Of a DNA stretch of 64,000 nt, positions 5,583 through 36,181 are shown piece after piece. The DNA comes from Candidatus Falkowbacteria bacterium (GTDB lineage: Bacteria; Patescibacteriota; Patescibacteriia; Patescibacteriales; UBA12465): the NCBI GenBank assembly GCA_037134915.1, contig JBAXLJ010000001.1, positions 101,484 to 165,483 of the forward strand, in the 5' to 3' direction. Made by a program: the position numbers and the translations under genes. The notes under the pieces are model-generated. The model was not told the DNA's origin. It worked only from the letters and a program-made list of their open reading frames with translations, and did not search any database. Each line of letters starts with the position of its first letter. Position 1 is the first letter of the stretch.

Positions 5583-5753
5583 AAATCTACGGAGCGGTGA
5601 GTATTAAGCTGAACCTTACCAACTGAATATCTTTAGAATAATATCAAAACATCAAAATATAACTTGACGTGGAACTTTGCAATTGTTCTGCGTTAGGTCT
5701 CACTTCATTTTGCGAAGTGAGCATACTTTTGGAAACAAAAGTGTGGGAGAATC

Positions 5754-8742
<2,989 letters not shown>

Positions 8743-8836
8743 GATTCTCCCACACTTTTGTTTGTCTAGATATTCTAAAGAATTATAGTCACAGTCTGAA
8801 AGGATGGCTGTGACAAACAAATCAAAAAACGCCATT

Positions 8837-8954
8837 GTTCTGGTGATTGAAGCGAAGAGGTCACACCTGATCCCTTCCCGAACTCAGAAGTTAAGCTCTT
8901 CAGCGCCGATGATACTTGGGCCTGAGCCCTGGGAAAGTAGGTCGTCGCCAGAAC
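8837..8954 (+). rRNA. rrf: 5S ribosomal RNA
   Basis: 118 nt with CCGAACTCAGAAGTTAAGC and terminal helix GTTCTGGTG/CGCCAGAAC. The flanks extend the helix (CCATT.../...AATGG). Confidence 0.95.
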
Positions 8955-35431: not shown

Positions 35432-35540
35432 ACGGTGTTTTAAATAAAAATTCGTTAATTATTAATCAGATTCTAGCACAAACTTAAATAAAAATCAAGG
35501 GCTATTATCTGCTTAGCTTTGGTCGAATTGGCCAAAAATG

Positions 35541-35611
35541 TCGGGGTGCTGGGAATTGAACCCAGTCAACATGCTCCCAAAGCATGCGTACTACCGGTAT
35601 ACGACACCCCG
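35541..35611 (-). tRNA. tRNA-Pro(UGG)
   Basis: Cloverleaf with acceptor CGGGGTG/CACCCCG, anticodon loop TTTGGGA, T-loop TTCAATT, a 4-nt variable loop, and no encoded CCA. Confidence 0.85.
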
Positions 35612-35644
35612 TGTTAGGGTTTTTAAACCCTCAATATTCTGTTG

Positions 35645-35982
35645 TGCCCCGGGTCAGAATCGAACTGACGACACAAGGATTTTCCTTGTAAACTACTTAA
35701 GTTTCCTTAAGGATTGGACTATATCATCTCCGCTTAATATTTACATATCAAGGACGGAGTCGGGCGCTATCTGTGGGGTTATTGTTGGGCTCACCCACTA
35801 GTCTCTACGCCTTCCTTAATTATTAATAACGATTATTAATCCCAATTAAGGCTTGGCTCGGGATTGCCTTTTTGTCAGAATGACAAATTAAGGTTTCCCC
35901 GAATTCACCCGATTTTCATTCCCATGTTTCCATGAGACGGACCGAAAATCAGTCCTTTGCTCTACCACTGAGCTACCGAGGC
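35645..35982 (-). tRNA. tRNA-Phe(GAA) interrupted by a group I intron (exons 35982-35951 and 35684-35645)
   Basis: The joined exons read GCCTCGGTAGCTCAGTGGTAGAGCAAAGGACT|GAAAATCCTTGTGTCGTCAGTTCGATTCTGACCCGGGGCA. This gives a perfect cloverleaf with anticodon loop CTGAAAA, variable loop GTGTC and A73, close to the E. coli tRNA-Phe pattern. Confidence 0.85.
35685..35950 (-). ncRNA. group I intron (IC3-like core), 266 nt, no ORF
   Basis: P1 pairs GGACU with GGUCC, with U.G at the 5' splice site. P10 pairs AUUUUC with 3'-exon GAAAAU. The terminal nucleotide is a G. P2 is capped by GAAA. Core strings GAAUUCGGGGAAACCUUAA, CCGAGCCAAGCC and GGCGUAGAGACUAGUGGG resemble the Azoarcus and cyanobacterial tRNA introns as I recall them. 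Confidence 0.85.
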
Positions 35983-36010
35983 ATCGGTAAAGTTTTTTGT
36001 AAAAAACTTG

Positions 36011-36083
36011 TTGCGGGGGTCGGATTCGAACCGACGACCTTCGGGTTATGGGCCCGACGAGCTGCCAACTGCTCTACCCCGCG
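36011..36083 (-). tRNA. initiator tRNA-fMet(CAU)
   Basis: C1:A72 mismatch, three G-C pairs closing the anticodon stem (TCGGG/CCCGA), anticodon loop CCCATAA. Confidence 0.9.
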
Positions 36084-36107
36084 ATACTTAAACTGCAAGC
36101 AGTTATG

Positions 36108-36181
36108 TGGGCAATGGAGGATTCGAACCTCCGACCTCAACATTATCAGTGTTGCGCTCTAACCAACTGAGCTAATTGCCC
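36108..36181 (-). tRNA. tRNA-Ile(GAU)
   Basis: Cloverleaf GGGCAAT.../...ATTGCCC, anticodon loop CTGATAA, T-loop TTCGAAT. Confidence 0.9.

Follow-up and report, generated by a model that had tools for sequence, protein, structure and literature searches.

A 266-nucleotide group I intron at position 33/34 of tRNA-Phe(GAA) in a Candidatus Falkowbacteria bacterium, a further member of a described Patescibacteria tRNA intron class

Introduction

The number of bacterial tRNA group I intron types was raised from 4 to 21 according to Williams (bioRxiv 2020, doi 10.1101/2020.01.27.920355). The seed alignment of the same work includes Mba55.Phe.2Ug, an intron of tRNA-Phe inserted at loop position 2 (between nucleotides 33 and 34, hereafter 33/34), with U(-1) and a terminal g. 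This is also the classical site of tRNA-fMet introns ("fMet.2Ug"; Williams, doi 10.1101/2020.01.27.920355; Nakagawa et al., PMC13011429). More recently, "Phe (GAA) 33/34" was tabulated, and its sequence given, for the Doudnabacteria genome GCA_016699995.1 (Nakagawa et al., mSystems 2026, PMC13011429, Tables 1 and S3), and the tRNA-Asn(GUU) 35/36 intron of GCA_016700035.1 was reported to self-splice in vitro (Nakagawa et al. 2026, PMC13011429). Here we analyse a stretch of 64,000 nucleotides (nt) from a Candidatus Falkowbacteria bacterium (contig JBAXLJ010000001.1, positions 101,484 to 165,483), called the window hereafter, in which a minus-strand tRNA-Phe(GAA) gene is split at 33/34 by a group I intron. 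It belongs to a class, Phe.2Ug or "Phe (GAA) 33/34", that computational work of 2020 and 2026 had already described and that occurs mostly in Patescibacteria. Judging from its sequence and by analogy with related introns, it is very probably a functional, self-splicing group I intron of 266 nt that contains no open reading frame (ORF).

An original prediction, made from the letters of the window, had taken both this host tRNA and this site to be new. The two published entries, together with the at least 68 species reported below, overturn that claim.

Results

A split tRNA-Phe gene on the minus strand

The gene is composed of three segments:

35982-35951, minus strand: tRNA-Phe 5' exon, 32 nt, positions 1-33, ending ...GGACU at U33; letters GCCUCGGUAGCUCAGUGGUAGAGCAAAGGACU
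35950-35685, minus strand: group I intron, 266 nt, GAUUUUCGGUCC...UUUACAAG, with the terminal G (omega-G) at 35685
35684-35645, minus strand: tRNA-Phe 3' exon, GAAAAUCC..., G34 through A73; CCA not encoded

The joined exons were recognised by ARAGORN as tRNA-Phe(GAA), with anticodon loop CUGAAAA, variable loop GUGUC and discriminator A73, in a cloverleaf that is regular except for one G.U pair (U4.G69). When introns were allowed (option -i), the program reported tRNA-Phe i(34,266) from the genomic sequence, whereas in default mode on the 64-kb window it called seven other tRNAs and missed the split one. The split minus-strand gene, its 266-nt insert at 33/34 and the cloverleaf of the original prediction proved exact to the base, both by reading of the sequence and by ARAGORN. 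Two boundary placements yield the same mature tRNA, because intron and 3' exon both start with G; enumeration of these placements revealed that 33/34 alone combines U(-1) with a terminal intron G.

The group I identity that had been proposed was borne out by the Rfam model Intron_gpI (RF00028), which matched 35960-35695 over its full length (model positions 1-253 of 253) with 95.7 bits, for a gathering score of 50 bits, and E=2e-23, well outside what chance would give. No second tRNA-Phe was found in the 64-kb window by ARAGORN or Rfam, in agreement with the earlier statement that this is the only one there. On the intron's own strand, no ORF exceeded 26 amino acids (aa), so that the intron, as predicted, is ORF-less and therefore holds no homing endonuclease.

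Likeness to described introns

Among described introns, that of Doudnabacteria GCA_016699995.1 (80% identity) shares with the window intron its host, site and boundaries, as well as the string gagacta gtagg tgagcccaacaataat cctac ggat agcgccc, which runs through the paired (P) segments P7, P7.1 and P3'. It differs by its length (211 nt versus 266), the lack of P9, and shorter P5, P6 and P8. Mba55.Phe.2Ug (76% identity) has the tRNA-Phe host, the 33/34 site, U(-1), the terminal G, the core and the P7.1 loop UGAGUCCCAACAAUAAU in common with it, but its P1 is GCCCU/GGGGC, reflecting another anticodon stem, its 3' exon is of the GAAGA type, and P9 is absent. The tRNA-Asn(GUU) 35/36 intron of GCA_016700035.1 (69% identity) resembles the window intron in its P7.1 loop (GAGAG-UGAGCCCAACAAUAAU-CUCUC), in AGCGCCC within P3', in the P7' strand GAUAGUCC and in a GAAA-capped P9, whereas host and site are different and its P4 is UGCGGG/UCCGCA instead of UCGGGG/UCCCGA. 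The same P7.1 loop is present in all four of these introns.

Two classical introns were also compared. The Azoarcus tRNA-Ile(CAU) intron (subgroup IC3; "Ile2.5Ug") is likewise a small, ORF-less bacterial tRNA intron, with GAAA loops on P2 and P9 and near-identical strings in P4'-P6 and, with the joining (J) segments, in J3/4-P4 and J6/7-P7. However, it is inserted at 36/37, has no hairpin between P7 and P3', measures 205 nt and is 62% identical. Cyanobacterial tRNA-fMet introns ("fMet.2Ug") share the 33/34 site, where the universally conserved U33 is the U of the U.G pair, but their host tRNA is another one, and they are listed as IC3 in the database cited by Williams. Judged by identity, the window intron is a new sequence, at most 86% identical to the species representatives among the matches listed.

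Fold of the intron and its comparative support

The helices were placed as follows:

35939..35955, minus strand: P1, GGACU (35955-35951) with the internal guide GGUCC (35943-35939); U33.G at the splice site
35949-35944, minus strand: P10 strand in the P1 loop, AUUUUC
35679..35684, minus strand: P10 3' strand, GAAAAU, the first six 3'-exon bases, pairing with AUUUUC of the P1 loop
35920..35937, minus strand: P2 hairpin, UCUCAUG-GAAA-CAUGGGA; 7 of 7 pairs changed on both sides, 93.7% of cells paired
35906..35912, minus strand: P3 5' strand, UCGGGUG; 100% paired with 35766-35760, compensatory change in 2 of 7 pairs
35858..35902, minus strand: P4, UCGGGG/UCCCGA, enclosing P5/P5a; 100% paired, compensatory change in 2 of 6 pairs
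35809..35857, minus strand: P6 (GCC/GGC), P6a and P6b; P6a with compensatory change in 8 of 8 pairs, 97.3% paired
35799..35805, minus strand: P7 5' strand, G(A)GACUA; invariant in 66 sequences, 100% paired with UAGUCC
35773..35798, minus strand: P7.1 hairpin, 26 nt between P7 and P3', GUGGG-UGAGCCCAACAAUAAC-CCCAC
35760..35766, minus strand: P3 3' strand, CGCCCGA
35728..35759, minus strand: P8/P8a hairpin with GUAA loop; most proximal P8 pairs compensatory
35716..35721, minus strand: P7 3' strand, UAGUCC; invariant
35696..35711, minus strand: P9 hairpin, CUUAAG-GAAA-CUUAAG; compensatory change in 6 of 6 pairs, 99.2% paired

Several of these elements, namely P1 with its U.G pair, P10, the terminal G, and the GAAA-capped P2 and 3' hairpin (P9), had been pointed out in the original prediction and were all present as described. 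Minimum free energy (MFE) folding, which cannot represent the P3/P7 pseudoknot, recovered P2, P4, P5/P5a, P6a/b, P7.1, P8/P8a and P9 (-78 kcal/mol, z = -3.86). P6b is found in the window only among the family, and is supported by this MFE fold.

The window fold was projected onto a MAFFT alignment of 66 tRNA-Phe introns (alignment A1) and pairs were counted. Standard pairs occupied 90.2% of the cells, versus 75.3% in shuffles, none of the 500 shuffles reaching as high; sliding the partners by 1-3 columns lowered the paired cells to 35-52%. Changes on both sides were observed for 58 pairs, versus 48.6 in shuffles. Compensatory change was found in P2, P3, P4, P6a, P7.1 (4 of the 5 stem pairs, 98.8% paired), P8 and P9, and not in P7, which is invariant. 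The conserved P3-P8 core was present with its P3/P7 pseudoknot, P3, P4 and P7 being each 100% paired, as the proposed group I fold demands of P3 and P7. P9 is missing in roughly 40% of the family (gaps in 25-26 of the 66 sequences). All 64 family-invariant columns of the alignment were found in the window intron.

Pairings with the exons followed the host. P1 measured 4-6 base pairs (bp) in all 69 genes, that is, the window and the relatives described below, and covaried with the host anticodon stem; P10 had at least 4 bp in 65 of them. Where the exons read GGACU and GAAAAU, the guide is GGUCC and the loop ...UUUUC, and where they read GCCCU and GAAGAG, the guide is GGGGC and the loop ...CUCUU. 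One P10 pair exchanges UA and CG (35 versus 30 sequences), tracking the GAAAAU and GAAGAG exons.

A separate observation was made on the first P6 pair (columns 127/237 of A1). It is G-C in the window and G.U in 54 sequences. In eight others it is non-standard, and appears by eye to be A.C (GAACCAAG ... GGCG), which may reflect a wobble exchange from G.U to A.C.

A family spread over Patescibacteria

One genome per GTDB species was scanned with the pattern AGAGACTA-N(6-20)-CAACAATAA-N(4-16)-AGCGCCC, whose strings are common to the window and a published tRNA-Phe intron, and at least 119 stretches matched. Boundaries in these relatives were set by ARAGORN with introns allowed, followed by enumeration of equivalent placements. 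Besides the window, at least 68 loci from species representatives have a tRNA-Phe(GAA) gene interrupted at 33/34 by an intron that follows a U and ends in G. The survey of related genomes suggested along with the original prediction yielded intron-plus genes in number, and also one locus, L118, with an intact tRNA-Phe, which is discussed below. Explicit names of Patescibacteria or of the candidate phyla radiation (CPR) were carried by 49 of the 68 among the matches listed, and include Saccharibacteria, Moran-, Magasanik-, Falkow-, Wolfe-, Berkel-, Doudna- and Gracilibacteria. The remaining loci come from metagenome-assembled genomes (MAGs) that are either unclassified or labelled Gammaproteobacteria or Bdellovibrionales.

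A Patescibacteria-type tRNA-Phe intron was seen in six third-party annotation (TPA) MAGs labelled Gammaproteobacteria (L021, L025, L030, L088, L098 and L111) and in three labelled Bdellovibrionales (L005, L034 and L041). The taxonomic labels of all nine look doubtful. L021, the closest relative among the matches listed, has the flanking genes and the synteny of the window, and the latter is shared with MAGs named as Patescibacteria.

Two subfamilies could be distinguished. The first (37 genes) has a GAAAA 3' exon (A37), mostly a GGACU stem, usually a GNRA-capped P9, and a median of 31 nt after P7'. The second (32 genes) has a GAAGA 3' exon (G37), GCCCU-type stems and no P9, with a median of 12 nt after P7'. 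The window intron, with its P9, belongs to the GGACU/GAAAA subfamily.

The window contig was found elsewhere in one Logan metagenome assembly (SRR12676973) only. Among the matches listed, the closest tRNA plus intron was that of L021 (86% identity), followed by L111, L077 and L038 (about 83%); by blastn, the window intron was 72-86% identical to 25 genome loci. The tRNA order Ile-Met-Phe(intron)-Pro recurs in at least eight loci (L019, L021, L027, L038, L077, L081, L095 and L102), and L104 reads Ile-Met-intron up to the point where the end of the locus cuts it off. Across the syntenic relatives, tRNA plus intron are 78-86% identical, versus only about 66-70% for flanking genes, which include rpsO, NYN, pnp and rpsP. 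Given this conserved cluster order, and a tRNA and intron better conserved than the neighbouring genes, the intron appears to have been inherited vertically over a long time, and under selection, in a Patescibacteria clade.

Subgroup of the intron

In subgroup IC3 introns, such as those of Azoarcus and Anabaena, P7 is joined directly to P3', with neither P7.1 nor P7.2. In subgroup IA of the Michel-Westhof classification, an extra pairing P7.1 (and P7.2) stands between P7 and P3'. The window intron does not have the direct junction, a 26-nt hairpin (35798-35773) occupying this place. Of the IA trait it has one covarying hairpin, P7.1; it lacks the second one, which Williams' consensus includes and which tmRNA and Leu.1Ug introns have. 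On sequence grounds, our call is an IA-like intron with an IC3-like core sequence.

The original prediction had likened three core strings to those of IC3 introns, and one may suppose that the window intron descends from the IC3 lineage of Azoarcus tRNA-Ile and cyanobacterial tRNA-Leu introns and has changed its host tRNA. The resemblance itself is genuine: AAUUCGGGGAAACC, CCCGAGCCAAGCC and GGCGUAGAGACUAG have close counterparts in the Azoarcus seed of Williams' alignment, and the GAAA loops on P2 and P9 are those that Azoarcus has. Membership in IC3 does not follow, however, and we consider such a descent very unlikely. A conserved, covarying P7.1 hairpin separates P7 from P3', where Azoarcus has nothing, and on this account IC3 membership is rejected. 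Identity to Azoarcus is 62% overall, versus 76-80% to the Patescibacteria Phe introns, and the spacing from GAGACUA to UAGUCC is 77 nt against 38 nt. It is in this interval, between P7 and P7', and not after P7' (31 versus 28 nt), that the extra length of the window intron sits. The total excess after GAGACUA is 42 nt (114 versus 72 nt in Azoarcus), where about 90 nt of extra P9-type hairpins had been predicted, and the extra element is the covarying P7.1 hairpin with a longer P8, not P9. In Williams' alignment, the P7.1 hairpin is common to Lys.2Ug, Asn.4Ug, Leu.1Ug and tmRNA introns and not to the classical IC3 set. The published classification goes the same way: in Nakagawa et al. (PMC13011429), where each intron receives the subgroup of the best-scoring Group1IntronDatabase covariance model, no Patescibacteria tRNA intron falls in IC, and nearly all are IA.

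Splicing model and functional status

The expected course of splicing would be the following. Before splicing, GGACU, made of the anticodon-stem 5' strand and C32-U33, would form P1 with the guide GGUCC, the U33.G pair marking the 5' splice site, and 3'-exon bases G34-U39 (GAAAAU) would form P10 with AUUUUC in the P1 loop. Because P1 and P10 take up its strands, the anticodon arm would form only after splicing. The core of the folded intron would run from P3 to P9 and include the P3/P7 pseudoknot and the extra P7.1 hairpin. An external guanosine would then attack after U33, the terminal G (35685) would next occupy the same guanosine binding site in P7, and the freed 3'-OH of U33 would attack before G34, ligating the exons into a normal tRNA-Phe. 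Catalysis is presumed here because group I introns are established to work in this manner and because the related Patescibacteria tRNA-Asn intron splices in vitro.

Some points weigh against this account or its comparative support. Distal P5 and P8 were badly aligned by MAFFT (56% and 78% paired). The family search pattern demanded part of the P7 strand, of the P7.1 loop and of the P3' strand, and the invariance of these strings is thus partly built in. The published in vitro assays are those of Asn and Asp 35/36 introns, not of Phe 33/34 (Nakagawa et al., PMC13011429). The tRNA-Phe copy count covers 64 kb of the genome only, which leaves room for a second copy; splicing would be essential if the split gene were the sole one. 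Lastly, L118 carries an intact tRNA-Phe(GAA) at 6210-6283, followed after 30 nt by a 5'-truncated Phe intron and its 3' exon (L118:6210-6470); the remnant spans the P6 3' strand, P7, P7.1, P3', P8 and P7', into the tRNA-Phe 3' exon. It appears that an uninterrupted copy displaced the split gene there and that the remnant is decaying. In the 68 listed loci, of up to 8 kb each, no intact tRNA-Phe was found near a complete split gene.

Could the window locus have decayed in the same manner, leaving a splicing-dead intron in a tRNA-Phe pseudogene while a working tRNA-Phe sits elsewhere in the genome? L118 displays such a displacement in a relative, only 64 kb are in view, and in the intron-bearing Doudnabacteria genome one tRNA-Phe is nonetheless counted by tRNAscan-SE 2.0, a program optimised for genes without introns. 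We nevertheless hold decay to be highly improbable: both exons are complete and give a proper cloverleaf, P1, P10 and every helix are intact, the 64 family-invariant columns are kept without exception, and in the syntenic relatives the neighbouring protein genes are less conserved than the intron. Another view would be that splicing in the cell needs a host protein or chaperone, and that the intron is retained as a regulatory coupling of tRNA-Phe supply to guanosine or Mg2+, not by neutral persistence. The intron is kept in many reduced genomes, the high conservation of its P7.1 loop, for which no partner has been assigned, is striking, and the discussion of Nakagawa et al. (PMC13011429) raises RNA-level regulation as a possibility. 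However, the related Asn and Asp introns splice protein-free in vitro (PMC13011429), and persistence is accounted for just as well if an intron is hard to remove exactly from an essential tRNA gene present in a single copy, so that we find this view distinctly unlikely. The reading retained is that of a functional self-splicing intron.

The P7.1 loop outside tRNA-Phe introns

The P7.1 loop is near-invariant, of 16-17 nt, and reads UGAG-N-CCCAACAAUAA. We also considered whether the GGG of the P7.1 5' strand pairs with the UCC triplet that follows UGAG in the loop; L060 and L106 seem to agree by eye, but most sequences exhibited no covariation, and the idea was not retained. The loop is common to Patescibacteria tRNA-Phe, Asn and Thr introns, to tRNA(CAU) introns of Isosphaeraceae, and to introns on phage contigs.

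On the viral side, the core motif was present on 47 IMG/VR contigs (L121-L167), none within a tRNA gene. An Rfam group I intron was detected at the motif in 5 of 12 viral loci tested (L128, L129, L146, L150 and L159). ORFs flanking the phage introns were annotated with PHROGs, Pfam having given no useful match for them. The gene for a major head protein (phrog_1005) is interrupted in L150 (2971-6262), where its parts are separated by a homing endonuclease ORF (phrog_314); a stretch of about 2 kb there holds three group I introns.

In Isosphaeraceae/Planctomycetota, about 20 loci, including L017, L050 and L018:5300-5650 (Singulisphaera acidiphila DSM 18658), have an intron with the P7-P7.1-P3' motif in a tRNA. 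ARAGORN miscalls these tRNAs as Gln, Arg or Lys, with boundaries that have no U(-1) or terminal G. With exons ...GGGGACUCAU and AAUCCCU..., the gene becomes a tRNA(CAU) split at 36/37, with U(-1), a terminal G and a tRNA-Ile2-like body. The planctomycete carriers are cultivable, so the intron family could be tested there.

Two cases of paired core motifs on one short contig were also seen, neither with a detectable tRNA around the motifs: L076:184-228 and 2091-2135, from a MAG labelled Flavobacterium, and L160:613-660 and 940-987, from a viral contig.

The tRNA cluster and other features of the window

The split gene is part of a cluster of four tRNA genes (35540..36181):

36181-36107, minus strand: tRNA-Ile(GAU), first gene of the cluster
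36083-36010, minus strand: tRNA-Met(CAU), between tRNA-Ile(GAU) and the split tRNA-Phe
35982-35645, minus strand: tRNA-Phe with its intron, between tRNA-Met(CAU) and tRNA-Pro(UGG)
35611-35540, minus strand: tRNA-Pro(UGG), last gene of the cluster

A promoter and terminator scan of the window gave counts no higher than in shuffles. On the minus strand, a single promoter-like site precedes tRNA-Ile by about 65 nt, but is not taken as evidence. On the opposite strand, an ORF of 87 aa (35538-35801, plus strand) overlaps tRNA-Pro and the intron, and is almost certainly spurious.

Regarding ribosomal RNA, the window contains a 23S gene (5746-8752) and a 5S gene (8839-8953), with no 16S gene within the 5.7 kb upstream; tRNA-Ile(GAU), at the position given above, and tRNA-Ala(UGC) (44289-44215) are distant from them. 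The rRNA genes look unlinked, because no 16S precedes them in these 5.7 kb and tRNA-Ile and tRNA-Ala lie elsewhere. The 23S gene has two insertions, one of about 50 nt near model position 282 and one of about 27 nt near position 312, neither of which is called as an intron at the gathering threshold.

Discussion

Our verdict on the window intron is that it is real, functional-looking and ordinary. The mechanistic questions that it poses are those already brought up by Nakagawa et al. (2026), and the P7.1 loop is the only loose end with potential for novelty. This loop might be a tertiary or protein-binding module that marks a distinct lineage, mobile between phages and tRNA genes, and in this organism the intron might also lie on the sole route to tRNA-Phe; we regard this combination as unlikely. 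If it were true, all Phe decoding would depend on a ribozyme requiring guanosine triphosphate (GTP), a possible regulatory valve.

The main value of the finding is a warning for annotation. Default tRNA finders miss the gene, as did ARAGORN without -i here and, according to the literature, tRNAscan-SE. The genome would therefore seem devoid of tRNA-Phe, and its completeness would be rated too low. In place of the missed tRNA-Phe, a gene caller could even annotate the opposite-strand 87-aa ORF.

For the family, the window brings an additional member, together with a syntenic clade, to a class of Patescibacteria tRNA introns that is widespread and was described only recently. The Phe 33/34 type of this class is now seen in at least 68 species representatives, versus the single complete genome tabulated in 2026.

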